Shown: in pieces, positions 10,450 to 53,002 of the stretch
Layout: each line of letters starts with the position of its first letter
Position numbering within the stretch: position 1 is the stretch's first letter
Source of the DNA: Clostridia bacterium
Lineage (GTDB): Bacteria; Bacillota; Clostridia; RGIG6154
DNA: 64,000 nucleotides
NCBI GenBank assembly: GCA_045593265.1
Contig: JAZNWH010000105.1
Coordinates: forward strand, 19,216-83,215
Direction of reading: 5' to 3'
The notes under the pieces: model-generated
Seen by the model: only the letters and a program-made list of their open reading frames with translations
Database searches by the model: none
Told to the model about the DNA's origin: nothing
Program-made: the position numbers and the translations under genes

Positions 10450-11817
10450 TTATAAATCTTCAACAAGAGTCTTTCTGTTTTTCCATTTTCCTGAGAAGAA
10501 ATAAATCATACTTGGAATTGCAAAACCATATGGTGCAAGAGCATATCCAAGAACAAATCCATAAAATCCCCAATTAAACACCACACCGAAAAGCCAGCTT
10601 AATCCAATTCTTAAAAATACTCCATCAAGAAGTGCAAGTATCATACTAAAGCGTGCATTTCCTATCCCCTGAACAAAAGCTCCGCTGCCTCTCATTACAG
10701 CAAAGGCAGGAAACATCCATAATATTGCTTTTATAAAAGTCTTTGACATTTCGTGAACCTGATAATCGTCGGAGAATATCATAAACAGCTGTCTTCCAAA
10801 CACTATGTAAAGCATCATAAATATCAGTGTAAGTATTCCTGAATATACCCAAGCCCAATACACAATATGTTTTGCACGGTTTTTCTCGCCTGCACCTATA
10901 TTCTGACTTATCATAGGCATAGCCGCATGTTGTATTCCCTGAGAAATTTTATTTATTATATCGTCAATTCTTATACCTACGCCAAATGTTGCTGAAGCAA
11001 CTACACCTACCTGATTTATTATTGAATTAACAAAAAGCATTGATAAATTAATAAACCCCGACTGAATTGCCATAGGCGTTCCTAAGCTTATTATCATTTG
11101 TGCGCAATTCTTATCAATTTTAAAGCTCTCTTTCTTAAACTCAAATCCAAAAGAGTGTCTATGTTTATACAAATACCATATAGAAAACAAAAACGAAACT
11201 GCCTGACCGATTATTGTTGCCCATGCTGCACCTGCAACACCAAATCCCATTATGCCTGTAAACAAAATATCAAGAACTAAATTTGTAACAGAAGCTATAA
11301 CAATAAACAATAAAGGTCTTTTTGAATCTCCCATACCACGAAGTACTGCAGACACCATATTATATCCCGCAGTAAAAAACAACCCTAAACCACATATAAC
11401 AAGGTATTCTATTGCCATTTTATAAGACTCTGACGGAACATTCATTACATTCAATATGCCTTTTCTGAACACAACACAGACAGTAGAAAATATTATCGCC
11501 AAAATAGTCAACAAGCAAAACAAAGTGCCTATAATATCATTGAGTTTTTCACGTTTGTTTGAACCTATAGCCTGAGAAACAAGGACCTGACCTGCATTTG
11601 AAACTCCGAGACATATCATTGTAGCGAAATTCACTATCTGACTACTCAGGGAAACGGCTGATAAACCTGCTGTACCTACATAACGCCCCACAATCATCAT
11701 ATCAATTGTACTGTACAACACCTGCAACGCATTTGACAACATAAACGGCAGCATAAAAAACAATAGCTGACGTGCTATATTTCCCTTAGTAAAATCTTTT
11801 GTAATACCGTTACTCAT
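10450..11817 (-). CDS. MATE family efflux transporter
   Basis: 455 aa, 12-TM MATE architecture. Confidence 0.8.
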   Translation of the reverse strand: MSNGITKDFTKGNIARQLLFFMLPFMLSNALQVLYSTIDMMIVGRYVGTAGLSAVSLSSQIVNFATMICLGVSNAGQVLVSQAIGSNKREKLNDIIGTLFCLLTILAIIFSTVCVVFRKGILNVMNVPSESYKMAIEYLVICGLGLFFTAGYNMVSAVLRGMGDSKRPLLFIVIASVTNLVLDILFTGIMGFGVAGAAWATIIGQAVSFLFSIWYLYKHRHSFGFEFKKESFKIDKNCAQMIISLGTPMAIQSGFINLSMLFVNSIINQVGVVASATFGVGIRIDDIINKISQGIQHAAMPMISQNIGAGEKNRAKHIVYWAWVYSGILTLIFMMLYIVFGRQLFMIFSDDYQVHEMSKTFIKAILWMFPAFAVMRGSGAFVQGIGNARFSMILALLDGVFLRIGLSWLFGVVFNWGFYGFVLGYALAPYGFAIPSMIYFFSGKWKNRKTLVEDL

Positions 11818-41592: not shown

Positions 41593-43482
41593 TTAAAACA
41601 ATCCTTTTTTCAAAGCAACACCAAAGCCAAGACCCATAAGAATTTCAGCTACAGTCCATCCGCTTTCTATACAGCATGGCCCCCAACCCACATCGTGAGG
41701 CATACCATATATTTCCATACGCTTAAGGTCAAGGCATCTTGCCCATGCACCATCATTTTTTTTATCATCGCTTACAATTTGTGCATCTGACATAAACTTA
41801 GCTATATCTTCCCATTTTTTCAGGAAGATTACATCATTGGTTACATAATAAGCATAAGAAAACCCTAAAGGCAACCAATTAAGAGAATACAGCATCTCAG
41901 CTATTTCATTTCCATTATCTGCAAGCATAGAAGATTCTGTGCCTGCTGTTCTGCTTCTATATGCTGTATAGCCAGGGTCAACTTCGGTATATCCACCGGT
42001 TTTATGGCGATAGATTTCAAGACGCTGACAAACATCATAGAGCCATTGTTTATGTTCTTCACTTCCTGTAACCTGATAAAGGCACGCAAGTGGAAAAATG
42101 AGTCTGCACAATTCTTCCGTTTCGCTTATTGCACGCATAGTTTCGGGATATACTCCCATAATGGTTGACAAGCCTTTTACAGCCGTTTCCTTGTATATTT
42201 CCTTGTGGTTGAGCTGATATGCAAGAAGAAGTGCAGCGCTGTAGTAGGCATTACGATGTGCACAGTACTGATTTGAAGGTTTTGATGTCATTTCCTTTAT
42301 TTTTTCATCAGTAAGATAGCTTGTATGAACACCATGTTCCATAAGTCCGTCAGTACCCGTTATACTGATAAGAAAATCAAGAGCTGCTTCAACCTGAGGC
42401 AACAGACTCATATCTTTGGTATACATCATATAAAATAAAGTACTGATAACAGCTCTTCCTGTATCATCTCCGTATACGGTACACCACGCACCTTCTGTCC
42501 ATCTGAGCATTCCTGAAAATTTCCCTGTTTTAATCTGCATTTTATCAAAAATGAAACTCGAAAGATTCTTGTAAACAGCAAGGGATTCTTTGTTATTCGA
42601 CAGAATATAATCAAAAAGATATGCACCTGCTATCTCCCCTACACAATCAACACGAACATTGTTTCTTTCAGCCTGAACACCATCAGGAGTAATTGGATGA
42701 GCCATACCCTCTCTTGCACCATCTTTTCCGTTGTCAAGAAGAATGTTGCATCCATCAAACCATGCCATTCCTCTGTCAAAAGTGCCCTGTGCATCACAGT
42801 TACTGCCAAGAGTATAGTATGGAGCGGGCATCTGTATTTGCTCTACTCCTAAATGATTAAGAATAATTTCAAGAATTCCACACCAGGATTCAAAAGGAGC
42901 AAATCTTGCTTTTACAAAGTTTGAAATACGAAATGAACATACAAGTCTGTTTTCGTTATAATACCAGAGTCGCCAGTCTCTTGTTGCAATCTCATCAGTT
43001 TTTATTTTTGACGCATCTATGTGGTCGTGGCTGACAATATGCCCACCATTATAGAGTATTGGATATGCATTATCAGGTAAAAAAATATGGTTGCACCCTC
43101 TATTTGCCTGGCTGTCAAGCAAATCACCAAATGTCAAGCTTTCGGTATCGCTTCCGATATATACATATCTGTTCATAGTATCACTCATAGAATCTCTGCC
43201 ATCATTGTAATCATCACCATCGGTATAAGTATATCCAAGGCTTGCACACCATTCGTAGAATATCGGCTTACCACTTTCAGCGAACTCCTCCGTTTTAACA
43301 CGAAGTGATGCACTAAGCACACGTGGTCTTGTATTCTCTGTTCCACAAAGCAAAGCTATAGCCGAATAGACAGATAAATCTTTGAGTTCAGCTTCCTTGA
43401 ACGAGAGCATTTCACATTTTCCTGAGTTCATTAAAATATTGCTTAAATCACTTTTGTTATCACTTATAATCAATATAGACAT
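41593..43482 (-). CDS. uncharacterised 629-aa cytoplasmic protein (N-terminal ~220-aa domain + probable alpha/alpha-toroid-like C-terminal domain)
   Basis: No signal peptide, TM or recognisable catalytic motif. First gene of the MurNAc operon, divergent from murR. Contains a GWGPCCIESGW segment. Confidence 0.6.
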   Translation of the reverse strand: MSILIISDNKSDLSNILMNSGKCEMLSFKEAELKDLSVYSAIALLCGTENTRPRVLSASLRVKTEEFAESGKPIFYEWCASLGYTYTDGDDYNDGRDSMSDTMNRYVYIGSDTESLTFGDLLDSQANRGCNHIFLPDNAYPILYNGGHIVSHDHIDASKIKTDEIATRDWRLWYYNENRLVCSFRISNFVKARFAPFESWCGILEIILNHLGVEQIQMPAPYYTLGSNCDAQGTFDRGMAWFDGCNILLDNGKDGAREGMAHPITPDGVQAERNNVRVDCVGEIAGAYLFDYILSNNKESLAVYKNLSSFIFDKMQIKTGKFSGMLRWTEGAWCTVYGDDTGRAVISTLFYMMYTKDMSLLPQVEAALDFLISITGTDGLMEHGVHTSYLTDEKIKEMTSKPSNQYCAHRNAYYSAALLLAYQLNHKEIYKETAVKGLSTIMGVYPETMRAISETEELCRLIFPLACLYQVTGSEEHKQWLYDVCQRLEIYRHKTGGYTEVDPGYTAYRSRTAGTESSMLADNGNEIAEMLYSLNWLPLGFSYAYYVTNDVIFLKKWEDIAKFMSDAQIVSDDKKNDGAWARCLDLKRMEIYGMPHDVGWGPCCIESGWTVAEILMGLGFGVALKKGLF

Positions 43483-43665: not shown

Positions 43666-44508
43666 ATGAGGAAAGATCTTGTCCAATTTATCACAGAAAA
43701 ATATACATCTATGACAAATAGTGAAAAAACTATAGCAGATTATATAATCAACAATCTCGAACACGTGCTTACCATAAGTGTGCAGGCACTGTCTGCAGAA
43801 CTAAACATCAGTGTCGCAACAATTGTTCGTTTTGCTCAACATTTAGGCTTTGACGGATATAAAGAATTCAGGCTGTGTCTTGCACAACTTGGTAATGAAC
43901 ACGAAGATTTTATTTTAGATTTTCACAAAAACGAAAACTCCCCCGATGCACAGATTTCAAAAATGCTTATATCCTGTTCAGAATGTTTAAACCTTACACG
44001 TCAAAATATAGATTATGATACTTTAACTGATATTGTCCAGGCAATTCACAGTGCTGAAAAAATAGCCTTCTTCGGTGTCGGAACTTCATATATAGTTTGT
44101 CAGGATGCATCCGTTAAATTCAAACGAATAGGAATTAATGCAGAATGTGCCTGTGAATCAACATCGGCATCACTCATTTTACTAAACATGAAAAAAGGTG
44201 ATGTGGTTTTTGGTATTTCTCATTCGGGAAACAACGAAACTGTAGAGAAAATATTAAAAATGGCACAAAAGATGGGACTGACAACAATTGCAGTAACAAC
44301 TTTCAGCAACACTAATATTTGCAAAACAGCAGATTACACGTTATTTACACAAACAAGAGAAAGTCCTTTGCACAAAATTGCCATCACATCCCGTGTAAGT
44401 CAATTCGCTATGATGGATTCTCTGTTTATGGCATATCTTACAATCAATTATGACCAGTGTATCAGTAACATCGAAAAAACTCATGAAATAAGTGAAGGTT
44501 TAAAATAG
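43666..44508 (+). CDS. murR: RpiR family transcriptional regulator (MurR-like; HTH_6 + SIS)
   Basis: 280 aa. Confidence 0.8.
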   Translation: MRKDLVQFITEKYTSMTNSEKTIADYIINNLEHVLTISVQALSAELNISVATIVRFAQHLGFDGYKEFRLCLAQLGNEHEDFILDFHKNENSPDAQISKMLISCSECLNLTRQNIDYDTLTDIVQAIHSAEKIAFFGVGTSYIVCQDASVKFKRIGINAECACESTSASLILLNMKKGDVVFGISHSGNNETVEKILKMAQKMGLTTIAVTTFSNTNICKTADYTLFTQTRESPLHKIAITSRVSQFAMMDSLFMAYLTINYDQCISNIEKTHEISEGLK

Positions 44509-44524
44509 AATATGCTTTAACTTA

Positions 44525-44560
44525 AAACTGCCCGGCTGAGTTTCAGCCGGGCAGTTTTTA
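44525..44560. terminator. bidirectional terminator between murR and the MATE gene
   Basis: AAAACTGCCCGGCTGA-gtttc-AGCCGGGCAGTTTTT. Confidence 0.7.
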
Positions 44561-45940
44561 ATTTTTATAAGAATTTTGTTCAAGCTTTATATATTGGTCA
44601 GATTTCCACTTGCCTGTAAGGAAAATAACTGTTGCAAATATCAATTCAGTAATATACGCACCGCTAAGTGCTATATGCACCCCATAAATTCGAATTTCGT
44701 AAGGCAATACAGCAAACATAATATAAGCATATACAACATAAGAAATTGCATAAATCAAAGTTGAAATAAACATAAGTGTTCCTGAACCGACCGCCCTGAA
44801 AATTCCGTGGAAAAGGTTATTGAATACATTGAAAAGTATGAAAGGAAATAAAATTCTTATCGTATTAACACTCACGGTAAAGCTTTGAGCGTCGTTAACA
44901 GGATCTAAAAACAAGGCAGTAAACTGCTTGGCAAAAATCATAAAGAATGAAAGAGTTACGCCAAAAAATACCAATCCCTGCGTTGTACCGATTTTTATCC
45001 CTGTCTTTATCTTATCAATTTTCCCCGCTCCCATAGCCTGAGCCACAAAGTTTGTATTTGCTTTAGTTGAATTCTGATAAACTGCCAAAATTAAACTTCT
45101 CGCTTTATTTGCTACTGCATAGCCTGAAAGTGCTGCTGTTGCACAGGTGTTGGTAAGAGGCGAAACCAACGCAGTACAAGCATACATTGCCATCTGCTGA
45201 AACATTGATGGGGTTCCATAGTCTACCGACTTTTTAAACATTTCTTTATTGAATTTAATCCCTCTTATTTTTACCCCCATATTTTTAAACAGTTTTATAT
45301 AAATATAAATATAAACAATTGTTGTAACCAATGCTGCAATTACCGTTGCCAGAGCACTATACCCGATTCCTTTGTGGAAAACGGATAAAAACAGATAGTT
45401 CAGTCCCACATTAATAATCCCTGTAATTACTGAGGCTGTAAGTGGAAGTTTGGTAAGCCCCAATCCGTTTGAAATATATGTAAATCCCCAGTTAAACTGA
45501 AAAACTATATATCCTAAAGCGTATGTTCTGAAATATAGCTCGGCATTTTGGTAAACCTCATCATTTACATTCAATATGTCAAAAATCTTGTCGCAAAACA
45601 AATTACATCCAAGTGAAATAATAATTGCAAAAGAAAGTGTAATCAAAAAATTCACTTTAATAACATTTAACATTTTTTCATATTCACTTTTACCAAAGAG
45701 CACCGAAACATATATTCCTATACCTGTAAGATATCCGAAAAAAATTGAATTTAAAAGCTCAATCAACTCAGCAGTAACTGCTGTTGCAGCAAATGCATCA
45801 CTTCCGATAAACTTGCCTATCATCATTGAATTAACAAAACTGTATGATTGTGAAAGAAGTGCAGATAAAATAAGAGGAATTGCGAATAACAAATACTTTT
45901 TGCGCATATTCCCTTCATATAATTTTTCGATTTTCTTCAT
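44558..45940 (-). CDS. MATE/MOP-superfamily transporter
   Basis: 460 aa, 12 TM. Confidence 0.8.
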   Translation of the reverse strand: MKKIEKLYEGNMRKKYLLFAIPLILSALLSQSYSFVNSMMIGKFIGSDAFAATAVTAELIELLNSIFFGYLTGIGIYVSVLFGKSEYEKMLNVIKVNFLITLSFAIIISLGCNLFCDKIFDILNVNDEVYQNAELYFRTYALGYIVFQFNWGFTYISNGLGLTKLPLTASVITGIINVGLNYLFLSVFHKGIGYSALATVIAALVTTIVYIYIYIKLFKNMGVKIRGIKFNKEMFKKSVDYGTPSMFQQMAMYACTALVSPLTNTCATAALSGYAVANKARSLILAVYQNSTKANTNFVAQAMGAGKIDKIKTGIKIGTTQGLVFFGVTLSFFMIFAKQFTALFLDPVNDAQSFTVSVNTIRILFPFILFNVFNNLFHGIFRAVGSGTLMFISTLIYAISYVVYAYIMFAVLPYEIRIYGVHIALSGAYITELIFATVIFLTGKWKSDQYIKLEQNSYKN

Positions 45941-46059
45941 ATATCTGTGTGCTCCTTGACTTTTATATTTAAATTAAGTATAATTTAACAAATAGGAAAA
46001 ATCAATATTTGCGAAAATATTTCAAAATAATCAACAAAAATCACGAAGGAAGCGATTAT

Positions 46060-46806
46060 ATGTATCAACAGGAGAGAATGGACAAAATAATGAAAATACT
46101 AAAGGAAAATCACTATGTAACCGTAGATTTTCTTGTAAGTGAAATAAAATACAGTCCCGCAAGTATAAGAAGGGATTTAACTCTTCTTGAAAAACAAGGA
46201 CTCATTACAAGAAGCTACGGTGGTGTTACATATAAAGATGCCAATATCTCTCCATTCAGATTTCGTCAGCACAGTATGAAATCCGCAAAAAACGCAATCG
46301 CTCAAAAAGCTGCAACCCTCGTTAAAAATGGTGATTTTGTTTTTATTGATGGTTCATCAACCACTCAATATATGGGACACTTTCTGACGGACAAGAAAGG
46401 TATAACCGTACTTACCTGTAATATGCTTCTTGCGGATTTTTTAAGCGAGCATGGCATAAACACTTATTGTACAGGTGGACAAATTGTGGAATACCCCGGA
46501 ATTTTAGGCGGCAGCTATATGCTGGATACATTGTCAAAATTCAACATAGATATAGCTTTCTTTTCCTCCACCGCATTTAGTTCCAAAGGGCAAATTATAT
46601 CTCTTGGTGAAAGCGGTTTGCTTAATCATCAATCATTAAGGAAGAATTCAAAGAAACTTGCATACCTCTGCGGAAGTGATAAATTTGATACTAACGGAAA
46701 ATTTGTAAGTCTTACATTAAACGATATTGATTACTTTATAAGTGATAAAAATCTTCCCGAAAGTCTGAAACAAAATTACAAAACCACATTTATATGTACG
46801 AAATAG
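46060..46806 (+). CDS. DeoR/GlpR family transcriptional regulator
   Basis: Start at MYQQERMDKIMKIL after a GAAGGAAG RBS. HTH plus DeoR C-terminal sugar-binding domain. Confidence 0.8.
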   Translation: MYQQERMDKIMKILKENHYVTVDFLVSEIKYSPASIRRDLTLLEKQGLITRSYGGVTYKDANISPFRFRQHSMKSAKNAIAQKAATLVKNGDFVFIDGSSTTQYMGHFLTDKKGITVLTCNMLLADFLSEHGINTYCTGGQIVEYPGILGGSYMLDTLSKFNIDIAFFSSTAFSSKGQIISLGESGLLNHQSLRKNSKKLAYLCGSDKFDTNGKFVSLTLNDIDYFISDKNLPESLKQNYKTTFICTK

Positions 46807-46825
46807 ATACTATTTAAATATAAAG

Positions 46826-46857
46826 AATGCTCGCCTACTATTTGATAGACGAGCATT
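46826..46857. terminator. stem-loop after the DeoR gene / spoIVB remnant
   Basis: AATGCTCG-16 nt-CGAGCATT. Confidence 0.4.
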
Positions 46858-46861
46858 TAAT

Positions 46862-46998
46862 TTATTTGATTTTCTCTTCTTCTGCCAGCATATTCTCGAT
46901 GAATATCCCGTATCCTCTCGTTGGGTCATTCACAAAAACGTGTGTTACAGCGCCGACAAGTTTCCCATTCTGAATCACTGGAGACCCAGACACAAGTG
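46862..46998 (-). pseudogene. truncated 3' remnant (~44 codons) of a spoIVB-like S55 peptidase gene
   Basis: Minus-strand translation ...[43 protein letters not shown]. Intact gene at 51005-51135 encodes ...[44 protein letters not shown]. Nucleotide identity is about 80%, with mainly synonymous differences. Confidence 0.65.
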
Positions 46999-47001
46999 AT
47001 G

Positions 47002-47871
47002 TCAATATGGGACAACAATATTTTTTGCCACTTTGATTTCTTCATCTGTTGGTAAGGTCTGTGGCAGCGTATTTTTCATATTTAACGCAGCATATTTTGA
47101 GCCAGCATAATTATGATACGGCAAAACTTTTACCCTTGTTATATTTTGAAGCTGTTTTAAAGATTCTGCAATTTTTTCAATTTGGTCAGAATTATATTCA
47201 GGTACATATGGTATACGAATTTCTGTTTCTTTGCCCAAAGAATCGATATATTTAAGATTATCCAATATAATTTTATTGCTTTGTCCTGTGCATTTAACAT
47301 GCACATTCTCATCAATTGCCTTAATATCATATAAAAATGTATCGGTGTAAGGCAAAACCTTATCAATACTTTCTTTTGGTACATATCCACAGGTATCAAC
47401 TGCTGTATTTATACCTTCTTTTTTTAACATATGTAAAAGCTCTGCACAAAAATCTGCCTGCATAAGACATTCTCCGCCCGAAAGTGTTACTCCGCCGCCG
47501 CTTGTTTCATAAAAGTCCTTATCTTCAAGTAATATCGGCAAAAGTTCATCTACTGTCATTTCCTTGCCGTAAAATTTCAGTGCTTCGCCAAGACAAGCCT
47601 TTTCACATTTTCCGCAAGCAACACATAAATCTCTTTCAAAAATATGACCTTCTCGTGTGATTTTGTGTGCACCTGATGGGCATACAAAAACGCATTCGCC
47701 GCAACTGATGCACTTGTTTTCGTAATATGCAAGCTGAGGCTTAAAATCAATGCTTTCGGGATTGTGGCACCACACACATTTTAGTGGACAGCCTTTGAAA
47801 AATACCGTTGTTCTTATTCCGTCACCATCGTGTACAGCAAAATGTTTTATATCAGAAATTAATGCTTTCAT
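47002..47871 (-). CDS. glycyl-radical enzyme activating protein (radical SAM, with two ferredoxin-like 4Fe-4S motifs)
   Basis: 289 aa. Radical [11 protein letters not shown], then [12 protein letters not shown] and [11 protein letters not shown]. Overlaps the GRE by 4 nt. Confidence 0.85.
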
Positions 47872-50105
47872 TTAGCATTCTCCGCTCTTAAAATATATGC
47901 ATCCTGCTCTTTTTTGCTCATATTATTCCAAAGAGTATTCCAACCACAAACTCTAACCTGCAGATTTTGATATTTTTCCGGATTTTTTTGTGCATCACGC
48001 AGAGTGTCTGTATTAAAAATATTGAACTGAATTGACTGACCGCCTTTGTTAAGATAGGTCATAAGAACACCTTTTAGCACATTTAATCCATCCTCGCCTT
48101 CAACTGCACTCGGGTGAAGCATAACATCAACACAAAACGATTCGTGATAATCAGACGGAATGAGCTTAGTCGCAGACTCAACCAAAGCCGTAACACCTTT
48201 TTTATCCATACTGACAACGGGAGAAGCATTTTTAGACAGTTCTTCTCCTTTTAATCTTCCATCCGGCAAAGCTCCGGTTTTTTCTCCCTGGTTTATAAAA
48301 GCACGGGCAGTGTGGAATATCGCTTTATACACACCGCCTCTGCCATTAGGTACATTATTCACCTTATTTGCAAAATAGCTTGCCATAGCTGATGCGTAAG
48401 TATCTGCCACAGCATCGTTGTTACCATATTTATGTGGCGATTTTTTTATTTGAATCTGTAATTTTTCGTAACCCTTCCAGTTAACTTCCAAAACCTTTGC
48501 AAGCTCAGACAGCGTTATTTCTTTTTTATCAAAAACAAATTCTTTTACCGCCATAATGCTGTCAACCGCACTGGCAAAACCGCAGTTAAGCATCGCATTG
48601 TTATTGAACTTAACACCACCGCCGTATCCGTCTCTGCCGTTTTTCAAAGAAGTTTCAATTGTCGCAGAATACATAGATGACGGATTTACAAATGCAAGAA
48701 AACGTTCTGCATCATTTGTGATTTTCATACTTTGCTCAATGAGATATTCCCATTGTTTTAAAAAGGCAAAATAGAAATCTTCAAATGTTTTGATTTCTGA
48801 AATCTCACCTGTTTTTACACCAACCTGTTTTTTAATCCCATAATCATACCCATTAGTAAACACAAACTCCACGGCTTTTGCCACATTTACATATCCCGAA
48901 GATGAACAAACCTCATTTGCCCTGACTCCTGTTTCATAACATCCTCTGATATCATAGTTAATCGCTTCTTCATAAGTAGCTCCATAACCCATTATAGCTT
49001 TTATCATAGCAGGCTCACAACAAAATACAATGCTGGCATTTTTTCGGCGAACCATATCAAAAGCTTTATTTAAGATTTTATCAGGTGTATTTTTATTTAT
49101 CTTCAACTGTATTTTAGGGTTATAGATTTCAAGCTCATCATATACATCAAGAATTTCGTATGAAAGTTCGTTGTACTTCGTGTTGCTGTTTAAATCGGTG
49201 CCACCCATATAAAACGGTTGCCCCCAATAGTTGCCTATGGCAGACCACTGCATAAAAAAGTAAGATAAATAATTTCTTATATCCTCTTTTGTGCATTTCC
49301 CCGACTCCAGATCATTTTTATAAAATCCGTACAACGTATTATCAAGACCGTTGCCTAGAGAACGAACCTGATAACTGTCTATTGATTCAGATATTATAAA
49401 AAATATATAAATAAACTGTAATGCCTCATAAAAACAAGTTGGATGTCCATCACGAAGATTTTTTAAACACTCAGCTATTTGAGGTGCCTTTTCAAAGGTT
49501 AATTCGCAAGCAGTACGATACATTCTGTCAATTAAATCAATAATTGCTGTGTATTGAATTTCAATGCCATCGAAAAATGCTTCTGTTTCTTTAGTCATAG
49601 TTTTGTTCTCACTGTGCATTTTACGGTATTCTCTTGCTCTTTCACGAATGCCAACAAACCCTAATTCCATTAAAGATTTCCAGTCAGGAACAACATGATC
49701 ATAGTCTGTACGTAGTGTTACTGCACCTGAATTGTTAAAATCATTGGAGCACTCCATAGTCTCGGGATTTCTTAAGGTGTGTGATTCTTTTTCCCATTTT
49801 TTGAAGGTGCTTTCGTTAGCTAAACGATTCAGCGAATAAAGACCTACAAAATAATCGTGCTCATTTATATACAAACGTTGATTTTCAAGAACATATTTAA
49901 TGGCTTTTGCTCTTACAATCGGGTGAGGTAAATTTTCGTTCTCCTTCGAAAGCTGTTCAAGTCCTTTTAACAGTTCCTCATCAACTATCCCACTTTCCTC
50001 TATATAGCCTGTTCCGTGATATGCCATACGGCTAAATGCATCAAATTCTTTTTCGGGATCGTGATATTTTCGTTCAATAAAATATCTGTCTGCAGAATTA
50101 ATCAT
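47868..50105 (-). CDS. glycyl radical enzyme, PFL2/glycerol-dehydratase-like clade, substrate unknown
   Basis: 745 aa from MINSADRY; RBS AGGTGGAG. The ORF could extend to 50129. C-terminal glycyl motif LQVRVCGWNT. Cys loop IRGCYETG sits 332 residues upstream of the radical Gly. Confidence 0.85.
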   Translation of the reverse strand: MINSADRYFIERKYHDPEKEFDAFSRMAYHGTGYIEESGIVDEELLKGLEQLSKENENLPHPIVRAKAIKYVLENQRLYINEHDYFVGLYSLNRLANESTFKKWEKESHTLRNPETMECSNDFNNSGAVTLRTDYDHVVPDWKSLMELGFVGIRERAREYRKMHSENKTMTKETEAFFDGIEIQYTAIIDLIDRMYRTACELTFEKAPQIAECLKNLRDGHPTCFYEALQFIYIFFIISESIDSYQVRSLGNGLDNTLYGFYKNDLESGKCTKEDIRNYLSYFFMQWSAIGNYWGQPFYMGGTDLNSNTKYNELSYEILDVYDELEIYNPKIQLKINKNTPDKILNKAFDMVRRKNASIVFCCEPAMIKAIMGYGATYEEAINYDIRGCYETGVRANEVCSSSGYVNVAKAVEFVFTNGYDYGIKKQVGVKTGEISEIKTFEDFYFAFLKQWEYLIEQSMKITNDAERFLAFVNPSSMYSATIETSLKNGRDGYGGGVKFNNNAMLNCGFASAVDSIMAVKEFVFDKKEITLSELAKVLEVNWKGYEKLQIQIKKSPHKYGNNDAVADTYASAMASYFANKVNNVPNGRGGVYKAIFHTARAFINQGEKTGALPDGRLKGEELSKNASPVVSMDKKGVTALVESATKLIPSDYHESFCVDVMLHPSAVEGEDGLNVLKGVLMTYLNKGGQSIQFNIFNTDTLRDAQKNPEKYQNLQVRVCGWNTLWNNMSKKEQDAYILRAENAK

Positions 50106-50217
50106 ATAATCTCCACCTTTCAAACGCATTTTAGCATAAAAAGAAATTTAATACAATGAATTAAAAGAAACATTTGACTTTTTAGAAACAAAATTATATA
50201 ATAAATACGGTGATTAT

Positions 50218-50988
50218 ATGATTAATTTTATGAAACATGATTTTATTATTGATAAAATTGAGCTTGCATGTATAGTAAAAGCCGGAAAAGGTTCAATGAT
50301 TCACAAAAACAGAGCAAGCAATGGATTGGCTCTGTTTTTAGGTGGCGAAAGAACTTTCTGCTTTGATGAGAAAAAGTTTAAGGTTACCAAAAACACAATC
50401 GTGTATTTTCCAAAAGGCTCAAACTACGTGATTAAAGAAAGAGAAGCTTCTGATTGCTATGCAATTAACTTTCAAATGCCTGATAACGTATTTTTTGAGC
50501 CGTTTGCATTTAAAATAAAAAATCTTAACACATATTTAGAAAACTTCAAAAACAGTCAGAAAATATGGGATAAAAAATCTACGGGGTATTTTTCGAAAGT
50601 TAAATCTGAGCTTTACAGCATAATTTACAATATGCAGTCAGAATATCTTATTCCGTACGGTAATTCATCTGTAATTAAGCCAGCTATTGATTATATACAC
50701 TCGAATTATTATAAAGAGAACATAAGTGTTGTGCATCTGGCATCACTCTGCGATATCAGCGTTGTGCATTTAAGAAACTGCTTTATTAAAAATTTCGCCC
50801 TATCGCCTGTTAAATATATAAATTTTCTTAAGCTAACTCGTGCAAAAGAGTTGCTTGAGTCAGGAATGTATACTGTTGGTGATGCTTGCTTCTTATCCGG
50901 CTATAATGACGAAAGCTATTTTTCCCGTGAATTTAAAAAGTCTTTTAAAAAATCACCAAAAGAATATGCAAAAGCATCCCGTAAATAG
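50218..50988 (+). CDS. AraC family transcriptional regulator (cupin-like sensor + HTH), divergent from GRE
   Basis: 256 aa with a C-terminal AraC HTH. Confidence 0.8.
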   Translation: MINFMKHDFIIDKIELACIVKAGKGSMIHKNRASNGLALFLGGERTFCFDEKKFKVTKNTIVYFPKGSNYVIKEREASDCYAINFQMPDNVFFEPFAFKIKNLNTYLENFKNSQKIWDKKSTGYFSKVKSELYSIIYNMQSEYLIPYGNSSVIKPAIDYIHSNYYKENISVVHLASLCDISVVHLRNCFIKNFALSPVKYINFLKLTRAKELLESGMYTVGDACFLSGYNDESYFSREFKKSFKKSPKEYAKASRK

Positions 50989-51004
50989 CAGGATGCTTTT
51001 TCTG

Positions 51005-52063
51005 TCACTTTATTCTTTCAGCCTCAGCCAGCATATTCTCGATGAATATTCCATAACCTCTCGTTGGGTCATTTACAAAAACATGGGTTACTGCACCTAT
51101 CAGTTTCCCATTTTGAACTAAAGGTGAACCCGACATTCCCTGCACGATGCCTCCTGTCAGGTTCAGGAGTGTTTTGTCGGTAATTTTAATTGTAAAGCCT
51201 TTTATAGTATTATCACCGCCACGAAGTATTTTACTGATTTTTACGCTATATTCTTTTACTTCTCCTCCTGCTATATTACTCAGAAGCATTGCCTCGCCCT
51301 CTGTAATTTCCTGAGAACTTGCAATCTCGATTTGAGGTGAATTGATATCTATGGACAGATTTCCTGCTATTCCGTTTGGTGAATTAGTTTTTATAGAACC
51401 TATAATCTTTCCGTTATTGCCGAAAGAGCCTGTTATCTCCCCTGTTTTACCTAAGGTCGGTTTTGTTATTTTAAAATTATCTGCAAAAAAACATTCTGCA
51501 AAAGAAATAGTAAAAGACACATTCGTATCAACATCATTTATAGGATGACCCAATGCCATAAACTTTTTGTTTTGCGTATCATAAAAAGTAACTGTTCCTA
51601 TTCCTGCAGTACTGTCCCGAACCCAGAGTCCTGCTCTTGTAGTATTTTCTTTAGTTATATGTGGTTCTAATGAAACCGTAAGTTTTTTTCCTTCTCTTAT
51701 TATATCTAATTTAACTTGTTTTTTATTTTGAATTTTTTCAGAAAAATCCGAAATCGAAAAGAGCTTTTTGTTATCTACGTGGGTTATATAATCACCCTTT
51801 TTTAATCCTGCTTCTTTTCCCGGAGAAACGTTTCCGTTATTCGTTTTTAATTCAGTTATATCTACTATAAGTATTCCGTCTGAGAAAAGCTTGATTCCTG
51901 CTATTTGCCCACCAGGAACAACTGTTCTTGGTGCGTAAACAGCTTCTGCAACGGACACATTATCTTTAAAGCCATTGAGACACGCGTTAAAAAAAAGCGC
52001 ACATAAAAGAAAAATTATCAAAGATAAACAAATTTTCTTTTTCGTAATTATCATTCCTTTCAT
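51005..52063 (-). CDS. spoIVB: SpoIVB-like S55 serine peptidase (PDZ + peptidase)
   Basis: 352 aa. N-terminal TM/signal, PDZ domain, GMSGSPLV serine motif. Confidence 0.7.
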   Translation of the reverse strand: MKGMIITKKKICLSLIIFLLCALFFNACLNGFKDNVSVAEAVYAPRTVVPGGQIAGIKLFSDGILIVDITELKTNNGNVSPGKEAGLKKGDYITHVDNKKLFSISDFSEKIQNKKQVKLDIIREGKKLTVSLEPHITKENTTRAGLWVRDSTAGIGTVTFYDTQNKKFMALGHPINDVDTNVSFTISFAECFFADNFKITKPTLGKTGEITGSFGNNGKIIGSIKTNSPNGIAGNLSIDINSPQIEIASSQEITEGEAMLLSNIAGGEVKEYSVKISKILRGGDNTIKGFTIKITDKTLLNLTGGIVQGMSGSPLVQNGKLIGAVTHVFVNDPTRGYGIFIENMLAEAERIK

Positions 52064-52113
52064 TTTTTATTTGATATTAAGTTTTGTAAATTTAAAATAT
52101 ATATGCTGTCAAA

Positions 52114-52146
52114 TAAAAAAAGCATCTCCAAAAAAAGAGATGCTTT
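52114..52146 (-). terminator. rho-independent terminator after the fumarase-alpha-like gene
   Basis: AGCATCTC-N8-GAGATGCT, then TTTTTT on the minus strand. Confidence 0.6.
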
Positions 52147-52159
52147 CATTGAAATGGTT

Positions 52160-53002
52160 TTATAAAATTATTGTCTTATGTCTTGTTACATGGCAGCTTA
52201 TATTTACAGCAACAGGAAGTCCTGCAATATGAGTGGGATAAGTTTCTATATTAACTCCCAATGCAGTTGTTTTTCCTCCCAAGCCTGAAGGGCCGATGCC
52301 AAGAGCGTTAATTTTTTCCAATAATTCATTTTCAAGCTTGGCATAATATAAATTTTCATTTGACGTATCAATGTTCCTTGTAAGTGCTTTTTTGGCAAGA
52401 ATTGCACATTTTTCAAAGCTTCCTCCTATTCCTACACCAACTACTATAGGCGGACAAGGATTGCTTGATGCTTTTTTTACTGTTTCAAGCACAAAATTTT
52501 TGACTCCCTCTTCACCATCTGATGGCTTTAACATTTTTACTGCACTCATATTTTCACTGCCAAAGCCTTTGGGTGCTATTGTTATTTCAATATTATCCCC
52601 GTCAACAATTTCATAGTGAATTACTGCAGGTGTGTTATCGTTTGTGTTTTTTCTTTCTAATGGGTCGCTTACAACTGAACATCTTAAGTATCCGTTTATA
52701 TACCCATTTCTTACACCCTTATTAATAGCATCGGTTATATTTTCACCTTCAATAAAAACATTATTACCTATTTTCACGAAAAATATTGCCATTCCTGTAT
52801 CCTGGCAAACAGGTACATTTTCATTTTCAGCAATTTTATAATTATTAATTATATCCGTTAAAATTTCTTTGGCAATTTGTTTATTTTCATCTTTATATGC
52901 TTTATCAAGTGCACATCTAATATCATCCGGAAGATAACAGTTTGCTTCTATACAAAGCTTTTCAACTGCACTTGCTATAAATTCAGAATTAATTTTTCTC
53001 AT
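52160..53002 (-). CDS. Fe-S hydro-lyase alpha subunit (class I fumarate hydratase / L(+)-tartrate dehydratase alpha-type)
   Basis: 280 aa. Conserved Cys ligands in the FumA N-domain family. No beta-subunit gene is adjacent. Confidence 0.7.

Follow-up and report, generated by a model that had tools for sequence, protein, structure and literature searches.

The question raised by this locus is why the 3' end of spoIVB, a sporulation gene, occurs twice in the same orientation around a glycyl radical enzyme (GRE) module. The locus lies in a 64-kb stretch of a Clostridia bacterium genome (contig JAZNWH010000105.1, positions 19,216 to 83,215), which is referred to as the window. Positions are given in window coordinates unless another locus is named, and L-numbers (L084, L239, and so on) are labels of comparison loci or contigs. 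A preliminary description of the window had explained the repeat by a homologous single crossover with foreign DNA carrying a spoIVB 3' homolog. The comparisons presented here favor a different origin: the two spoIVB ends are probably the attL and attR sides (attachment-site junctions) of an integrative cassette inserted by a site-specific serine recombinase, rather than the products of homologous integration.

Duplicated spoIVB 3' ends around a GRE module

A repeat search of positions 45500-52500 identified one direct-repeat pair, 46866-46992 and 51009-51135, with a length of 127 nt, an identity of 80%, and a separation of 4143 nt. No other direct-repeat family was detected within the 7 kb searched. 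When the copies were compared in codon register on the minus strand (46862-46990 versus 51005-51133), 101 of 129 nt and 37 of 42 amino acids were identical, and third codon positions held 22 of the 28 nucleotide differences. Identical runs of 17 and 23 nt were common to both copies. The Nei-Gojobori method gave a synonymous proportion (pS) of 0.73, where dS is saturated at approximately 2.7, together with a dN of 0.059 and a dN/dS of approximately 0.02. Because synonymous sites are saturated, a recent duplication inside the genome is not the source of the repeat. Each copy has a separate stop codon and a separate terminator hairpin, and both appear, from this pattern of substitution, to have diverged while serving as working gene ends. 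A decayed paralog was also weighed as an explanation and dropped.

The repeat begins at the TG ahead of the serine codon in the catalytic SGSP motif. The interval between the copies contains exactly three genes, which encode an AraC-family regulator (50218-50988, plus strand), the GRE (47868-50129, minus strand), and its activase (47002-47871, minus strand). The distal copy, or remnant, has the orientation of spoIVB, and its first base is 8 nt past the activase stop codon. Hence, the preliminary description was accurate on the architecture of the locus, including a same-orientation repeat 4.1 kb apart with coordinates right within a few bases, approximately 80% nucleotide identity with mostly synonymous differences, the absence of a recent intragenomic duplication, and repeats that flank exactly the activase-GRE-AraC module.

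A conserved 27-nt arm precedes additional spoIVB ends

The 42-residue SpoIVB end was searched by tblastn against 84 spoIVB loci of other Clostridia. One or two additional 3' ends in the same orientation were found at 14 of these loci, located 0.7-4.3 kb behind the intact gene, and nearly all of them began at one codon, within the catalytic-serine motif (xSGSP). Directly 5' of every well-preserved additional copy was a conserved non-coding motif of 27 nt, TGTTGTCCCnTATTGACAnCAnTCGTG, hereafter named the P arm. This arm has no homology to spoIVB, and it was conserved in lineages whose SpoIVB proteins are only 40-46% identical. An alignment of 46 non-redundant junctions showed conservation of both the motif and the SGSP codons, while the sequence farther upstream consisted of unrelated cargo. 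The 64-kb window contained a single match (46991-47017, one mismatch), where none was expected from shuffled sequences.

The cargo between copies was highly varied and included glycoside hydrolases, oxidoreductases, transporters, helix-turn-helix regulators, and other GRE operons. In the spoIVB arrays examined, a recombinase was never among the cargo between copies. Where arrays held several remnants, the distal ones were the decayed ones, as indicated by a stop codon in copy 2 of L084 and truncations in copy 2 of L009 and of L239.

Several individual arrays had features of their own. In L084 (11045-21044) and L239 (3583-22235), whose genomes are distantly related, several different GRE operons are stacked behind spoIVB; these are regulated by IclR or AraC proteins and encode GREs of 647-745 amino acids. 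In these organisms, GRE modules are collected at the spoIVB site. In L223 (14349-14613) and L178 (997-1100, both on the motif strand), the spoIVB-like sequence after the P arm ends after approximately 20 nt (CGSPII), beyond which both loci enter the same unrelated sequence; the junction lies behind a recombinase-bearing element in L223 and behind a cassette in L178. These short ends could represent either an old truncated remnant in two hosts or an att variant without the full gene end. In L150 (2861-3000, motif strand), the P arm is followed by 12 codons of the spoIVB end and then by a second spoIVB piece, which restarts approximately 17 codons before SGSP (...ISVTDPDLIAATGGIVQGMSGSAILQ); this junction is either rearranged or nested.

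Linkage of the arm to a triplet of large serine recombinases

Only a C-terminal fragment of spoIVB was present on eight IMG/VR contigs and on a GenBank virome contig (MT836038), with the motif ahead of each fragment. Among the IMG/VR contigs, seven of eight had enough upstream sequence and encoded an orthologous triplet of large serine recombinases (LSRs), LSR1-LSR2-LSR3; the L118 contig is cut inside the first gene. The triplet genes are arranged in tandem and encode proteins of 520-575 amino acids. The Pfam domains Resolvase and Recombinase were identified in those scanned, and Zn_ribbon_recom in all but LSR3 of L106. Sequence identity was approximately 45-55% within a position across contigs versus 25-33% between positions, and the order was always 1-2-3. 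In these relatives, three paralogous recombinase genes thus lie at the end of the element, in constant order and with the orientation of spoIVB.

A scan of metagenome contigs with the motif-plus-SGSP pattern returned at least 120 loci. Among the matches listed, 100 of the 110 loci with enough downstream sequence ran on into a spoIVB end, and in 56 of the 75 loci with more than 1.7 kb of upstream sequence an LSR1-2-3 triplet ended 12-209 nt before the motif. The remaining 19 of these 75 listed loci had no adjacent triplet, and five of the 19 were cassette arrays with an intact spoIVB body upstream.

The junction between element and host was sharp. In members of one LSR-element family, the last 400 nt ahead of the junction were mostly 89-94% identical with a GC content of 0.45, while at least five different spoIVB ends or host sequences followed the junction, with a GC content of 0.60-0.68 and flanks only approximately 25% identical. 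In junctions with an identical arm, the first base after ...GTG was already host-specific (AGC, AGT, TCG, TCC, or TCA), which suggests that the crossover falls at this base or immediately ahead of it. The TG common to the ATG codon of the gene and the GTG of the arm is the obvious candidate for a 2-bp core. Such junctions have the form of hybrid att sites, in which a constant P arm is joined to host-specific sequence 3' of the TG, and the window has the same boundary.

The unit in the window differs from these relatives, which have the same P arm and target, as it contains neither the triplet nor any recombinase of its own. It would therefore be at most a non-autonomous member of the LSR-element family. 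Intermediate arrangements were found elsewhere, including a unit with a truncated LSR between two spoIVB copies in L129, a cassette preceded by an inserted LSR element in L135, and a spoIVB copy followed directly by another LSR gene in L103.

The stacking of recombinase-less cassettes at one fixed site, with the newest units next to the platform, resembles integrons, and an integron-like or tyrosine-recombinase (Xer-type) capture was also considered, in which an attC-like or dif-like site would be formed by the P arm together with the copy. Arrays of promoter-proximal insertions, a palindrome in the P arm, and cassettes without recombinases would all fit such a system. However, a tyrosine recombinase was linked to the site in none of approximately 200 loci, whereas serine recombinases were found in the 56 of 75 listed matches described above. 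No IntI, attI, or attC was found, and neither Rfam nor any other known structured element matched the site. Unlike integron cassettes, these units are multigene and bring their own regulators, promoters, and terminators. This explanation was consequently given very little credence.

In L223 (34-9253, motif strand), the genes beside the triplet are defense and stress cargo and encode the Lon-like protease BrxL of bacteriophage exclusion (BREX) systems, an Mrr-type restriction endonuclease, a Y-family (ImpB/UmuC) polymerase, an ImmA/IrrE peptidase with an XRE repressor, and a PemK toxin. A Y-family polymerase also occurs in the small unit of L129. The viral-contig hits of the first P-arm scan were mostly an unrelated conserved gene of giant viruses, and L098 alone was genuine. 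Similarly, of ten GenBank records labeled "Bacteriophage sp." that matched the C-terminal peptide, nine were bacterial contigs with an intact spoIVB, often followed by spo0A, and only MT836038 bears the LSR triplet.

Horizontal transfer of the cassette and the identity of the foreign copy

Close relatives were taken from the protein database and from contig look-ups; a scan of genome contigs with SpoIVB yielded no relative above 46% identity. Between L084 and the window, the core region diverges considerably, with 75.6% nucleotide identity from QueT to spoIVB and amino acid identities of 75.8% for SpoIVB and 76.3% for RNase R. In contrast, the cassette (L084 15053-19118, window 47070-51135) is 95.2% identical at the nucleotide level, with runs of 600-800 nt at 100%. 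Similarly, SpoIVB of L239 is only 46% identical in amino acids, yet window positions 47000-51136 correspond to L239 8970-13103 with 86% nucleotide identity, from the SGSP boundary to the P arm. The closest relative, L081, has flanks of 88.7% nucleotide identity and carries the same AraC end behind its second copy, after a different first cassette. Overall, the AraC/GRE/activase block is 86-95% identical to blocks behind spoIVB genes whose products are only 46-76% identical, and the proposal that the GRE module is a horizontally acquired island was thus supported. The comparison of GC content and codon bias, which had been suggested as a check, did not discriminate between cassette (GC 0.351) and flanks (0.346-0.364).

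The GRE cassette, without a recombinase and with the same ends, was found behind spoIVB in four genomes with SpoIVB identities of 46-94%, which argues that it moves, or is exchanged, horizontally as a unit. The same observation bears on the possibility of decay in place, namely that the GRE module is what was left of a once-autonomous LSR element after its recombinase genes were deleted, and is no longer mobile. The unit with a truncated LSR in L129 and the fact that cargo genes abut the P arm are in line with such decay. However, since the LSR genes of autonomous elements end 12-62 nt from the P arm, a deletion of approximately 5 kb that spares the 27 nt would be needed each time, independently for many unrelated cargos, and decay in place does not account for one cassette with the same ends in four genomes of such different SpoIVB identity. 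The probability assigned to it was accordingly low.

The preliminary description had regarded the remnant as the foreign copy, and the comparison with relatives reversed this polarity. The replacement end at 51005-51133 travels with the cargo in L084, L081, and L239, which marks it as the foreign copy; the last 42 codons of the intact gene and the terminator behind them thus arrived with the cassette. The 3' flank of this replacement end is unrelated to the flank at the empty site. An empty site, for which the preliminary description had suggested checking related genomes, was found in L253-L255, where spoIVB is directly followed by a terminator whose stem (AATGCTCGTCTAT/...AGGCGAGCATT) is that of window positions 46826-46857. 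In addition, the remnant and its terminator (46826-46992) are co-linear with the single spoIVB end of L253-L255 at 76% identity, which equals the core divergence. The match of remnant and hairpin to the empty site identifies the remnant as the displaced resident end.

Structure of the cassette and its junctions

The intact spoIVB (51005-52063, minus strand) encodes a protein of 352 amino acids with PDZ and Peptidase_S55 domains (Pfam accession PF05580, E=1e-74). It is a chimera, in which the resident body extends to the ATG codon at 51134-51136 and is followed by the 3' end supplied by the cassette. The body is 75.6-88.7% identical to relatives at the nucleotide level, and the synteny QueT-SecG-RNase R-fumarase-spoIVB is kept. 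The gene-side half-site of the putative attL, or B arm, is at 51134-51160 (minus strand, codons ...TGGIVQGM) and ends in the presumed crossover dinucleotide TG (51134-51135), at which all high-identity cassette blocks and all repeats start. The replacement end (51005-51133, minus strand) extends from SGSP to the stop with 42 codons and TGA and is co-linear with the cassette in L239 and L084; its first approximately 25 nt would be the P' half-site. A terminator scan placed a hairpin at 50970-51000 (minus strand), which is carried by the cassette and serves both spoIVB and the convergent AraC gene. One of its arms is inside the AraC coding end, so that the hairpin overlaps the AraC stop codon, and an identical sequence lies behind the cassette-associated copy in L084 and L081.

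Among the cargo genes, the AraC-family regulator contains HTH_18 and HTH_AraC domains and has amino acid identities of 99.2% to L084 and 88.3% to L239. The GRE, with 753 amino acids and the Pfam domains PFL-like and Gly_radical, is 97.6% identical to its counterpart in L084 and 89.8% to that in L239. Its nearest solved structure is HypD (6vxc, E=9e-80), and it is predicted to be of the dehydratase/PFL2 type. The activase is a radical SAM enzyme (Radical_SAM and Fer4_12 domains) whose reading frame enters the P arm (47002-47023, minus strand), such that its last four codons and TGA stop are provided by the arm (...NIVVPY). The activase/arm junction of L239 is of the same type, but its arm is degenerate. 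In L084, the 3' end of the activase gene differs, its last 290 nt being only approximately 67% identical, and the arm is preceded by a 195-nt spacer that is absent in the window. Part of this spacer recurs before the truncated remnant in L009.

The P arm at 46991-47017 (minus strand, TGTTGTCCCATATTGACATCACTTGTG) would form the attR half-site on the side of the element. Within it lies the inverted repeat TGTTGTC...GACA(t)CA, with the palindromic form TGTTGTC-N7-GACAACA. Behind it, the displaced resident end (46862-46990, minus strand), identified by the repeat search and codon comparison, comprises the B' half-site and 42 codons with a TAA stop. It is followed by the resident spoIVB terminator found by the terminator scan (46826-46857, minus strand; AATGCTCGTCTAT...TAGGCGAGCATT), the stem of which is also present at the empty site of L253 and L254. 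The unit at 46991-51133 thus has the build of an att-flanked non-autonomous element of the cis-mobilizable element (CIME) type, with TG-SGSP junctions, a P arm, and only the AraC, GRE, and activase genes.

Proposed mechanism of insertion

These features are consistent with a family of mobile elements in Clostridia that would insert in spoIVB at the TG before the catalytic-serine codons, between GM and SGSP. Autonomous members would carry three tandem LSR genes at their right end, followed by the recognition arm of approximately 27 nt, and the LSR triplet would catalyze the reaction. Since the proposed crossover lies 42 codons before the spoIVB stop codon, a mobile unit would bring its own 42 codons and terminator at the left end, giving a general layout of replacement end, terminator, cargo with or without the LSR triplet, and P arm. 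Upon insertion, the resident body would read into the incoming copy, leaving spoIVB intact, and the old resident end would come to lie beyond the element, immediately after its P arm. As the rebuilt gene junction would look like an unoccupied site, later units could insert in front, and arrays would build up with the oldest and most decayed remnants farthest from the gene. Insertion in front fits the distal decay of remnants, the arrangements in L135 and L129, and the copy followed directly by an LSR gene in L103.

The window unit (46991-51133) would correspond to a member of this family with the order replacement end, terminator, AraC, GRE, activase, and P arm. As it has no recombinase of its own, it would be a non-autonomous or decayed member, which presumably relies on recombinases in trans or moves by homologous exchange through conserved flanks. 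Because no recombinase occurs in the window or near the arrays, the mobilization of this cassette by LSRs is inferred, as are the origin and movement of recombinase-less cassettes in general.

Several observations weigh against insertion by a site-specific serine recombinase. No recombinase gene was found in the cassette or in the 64-kb window, nor within 10 kb of the array-bearing loci among the 84 genomic spoIVB loci. The attL or left end of a recombinase-bearing element was not found either; an alignment-based viral scan and two degenerate GMSGSP patterns yielded either nothing or only ordinary spoIVB-spo0A loci. The presence of a replacement end in autonomous elements as well is suggested by the cassettes and L103. 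The P' and B' half-sites resemble each other, an uncommon situation among LSR att sites that does not account for directionality. Additionally, the copies are mosaics: the replacement end of the window is 70-85% identical to copy 1 of L084 over the first approximately 95 nt and then 100% identical, and the high-identity block shared with L084 stops inside the activase gene instead of at the P arm. This mosaicism shows clearly that homologous recombination or gene conversion acts at the site as well, and homologous exchange through conserved flanks may be the route by which this particular cassette arrived.

Part of this evidence would also suit the homologous alternative of the preliminary description, in which a circular DNA with a spoIVB 3' homolog integrates by a Campbell-type RecA single crossover, or flanking copies mediate a double-crossover swap, with no site-specific enzyme. 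The shared identical runs of 17 and 23 nt, the mosaic identity of copies and cassette with breakpoints away from the att positions, and the lack of a nearby recombinase are all expected from such an exchange. However, an identity of 78% over 129 nt is a poor substrate for RecA. Furthermore, Campbell integration needs no element-specific recognition sequence, and it leaves unexplained the invariant boundary codon in dozens of unrelated lineages, the non-homologous 27-nt arm at every right junction even where SpoIVB is 40-46% identical, the tight linkage of this arm to the LSR triplet, and the sharp break between element and host. The topology of the earlier proposal, a circular element joined by one reciprocal crossover, can therefore be retained, while a homologous crossover is very unlikely and RecA-mediated integration as an account of the locus is improbable. 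RecA exchange may account for the secondary spread of cassettes that already exist.

Beyond site-specific insertion by serine recombinases, an extension of the mechanism can be put forward tentatively, as a possibility that is rather less likely to hold than to fail. The GM and SGSP codons might function as a cassette-acquisition platform in gut and rumen Clostridia, at which minimal circles consisting of the P arm, the 42-codon end, and cargo are captured, stacked, and exchanged by triplet LSRs acting in trans. The three recombinases might correspond to the three types of half-sites (B, P, and B'/P').

Comparison with known mobile elements

The triplet serine integrases of streptococcal integrative and conjugative elements (ICEs) insert into mutT, traG, or hsdM, disrupt the gene, and leave direct repeats of 2-8 bp (Ambroset et al., 2016, PMC4701971). 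As judged by arrangement and domains, the elements described here share with those ICEs (PMC4701971) three tandem LSR genes in a fixed order at one extremity and in the same orientation relative to the target gene, the same domain content, and site-specific insertion inside a protein-coding gene. They differ in the target, the catalytic-serine codons of spoIVB, in the restoration of the gene by a 42-codon end, and in the occurrence of recombinase-less arrays.

In its way of working, the arrangement at spoIVB is closest to islands of the staphylococcal cassette chromosome (SCC) type and to att-flanked CIMEs. SCCmec, psi-SCC, and the arginine catabolic mobile element (ACME) are inserted at the 3' end of rlmH (orfX) by the large serine recombinases CcrAB or CcrC, with a repeat of approximately 15-18 nt at the very end of the gene. 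Insertion by LSRs near the 3' end of a conserved housekeeping gene, which remains intact, and tandem accretion bounded by gene-end repeats would be common to both systems, as would adaptive cargo and, for psi-SCC, recombinase-less members that depend on recombinases in trans. Unlike in SCC, the proposed crossover is 129 nt before the stop, so that a long, independently diverging coding repeat is carried, and there are three recombinases instead of one or two. Clostridia serve as hosts, catabolic modules make up most of the cargo, and the target is spoIVB rather than the rlmH 3' end recognized by Ccr. The resemblance would thus lie in the way of working and not in family membership.

ICESt3/fda-type elements and CIMEs use tyrosine integrases, with integrase-adjacent att sites and arm-type sites. 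Such elements, which sit at the 3' end of a tRNA or protein gene and bring a replacement 3' end, and CIMEs, which form by accretion, also have an identity block from the crossover to the gene end, a preserved target, and integrase-less, att-flanked tandem units, but it is serine recombinases that are linked to the spoIVB site. Sporulation genes of endospore formers are known targets of large serine recombinases: skin in sigK (SpoIVCA) and SPbeta in spsM (SprA) split their genes, which are rebuilt by excision in the mother cell, a terminally differentiated cell. Unlike in these cases, spoIVB is never split, because the replacement end is supplied. An unsplit gene would fit the production of SpoIVB in the forespore, whose genome is inherited. 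Compared with known systems, the spoIVB elements thus stand apart in their target, in the 42-codon end that they supply, in having three recombinases, and in how abundant catabolic cassettes without a recombinase are. No published account of spoIVB as a target of mobile elements or serine recombinases was found in the literature searched, which is not proof of novelty.

Wider neighborhood of spoIVB

Behind the remnant, the window encodes DeoR, MATE, and RpiR proteins (46009-46806, 44558-45940, and 43666-44508), which have no counterpart behind spoIVB in the relatives examined. A reading frame of 629 amino acids at 41593-43482 has no Pfam match, and no further remnant or P arm was found between it and the DeoR/MATE/RpiR genes. 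Among the relatives, L254 and L253/L255 encode identical SpoIVB proteins and share approximately 400 nt past the terminator, after which they diverge, with a DivIC-like gene in L254 versus a 629-amino-acid protein and GH28 in L253/L255. As neither a P arm nor a remnant was present there, a second type of variability that is not associated with att sites exists behind spoIVB.

On the upstream side, a MATE gene directly precedes the cobW-QueT-SecG-RNase R block in L084 (2548-3900) and L253 (2531-3912). Its homolog in the window (10450-11802, 73-74% nucleotide identity) is approximately 46 kb away from that block, which indicates a rearrangement or large insertion on the upstream side in the window lineage. 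In many other Clostridia (L109, L117, and L242-L251), spo0A is directly behind spoIVB in the classical arrangement, which is not found in the window lineage and its relatives. As an incidental observation only, no second spoIVB end was noticed in those spoIVB-spo0A loci.

Implications

Foreign metabolic modules that bring their own regulation accumulate behind spoIVB in many Oscillospiraceae and other Clostridia, which makes this region a hotspot. The 27-nt motif together with the repeated gene end provides a boundary marker for horizontally acquired cargo in gut metagenomes, by which several different glycyl radical enzymes, glycoside hydrolases, and defense genes can be delimited. The junctions also offer a natural candidate attB/attP pair for a widespread family of triplet LSRs, whose targets in Clostridia are largely uncharted. 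For annotation, they are a warning that the 3' end of spoIVB may differ in origin from the remaining gene. More generally, an element would be able to use a site amid the catalytic motif of an enzyme, with the host unharmed, by bringing the rest of the gene with it. If the platform proposed for the GM and SGSP codons holds true, it would be a serine-recombinase counterpart of the integron, which stockpiles whole regulated catabolic modules such as GRE operons.

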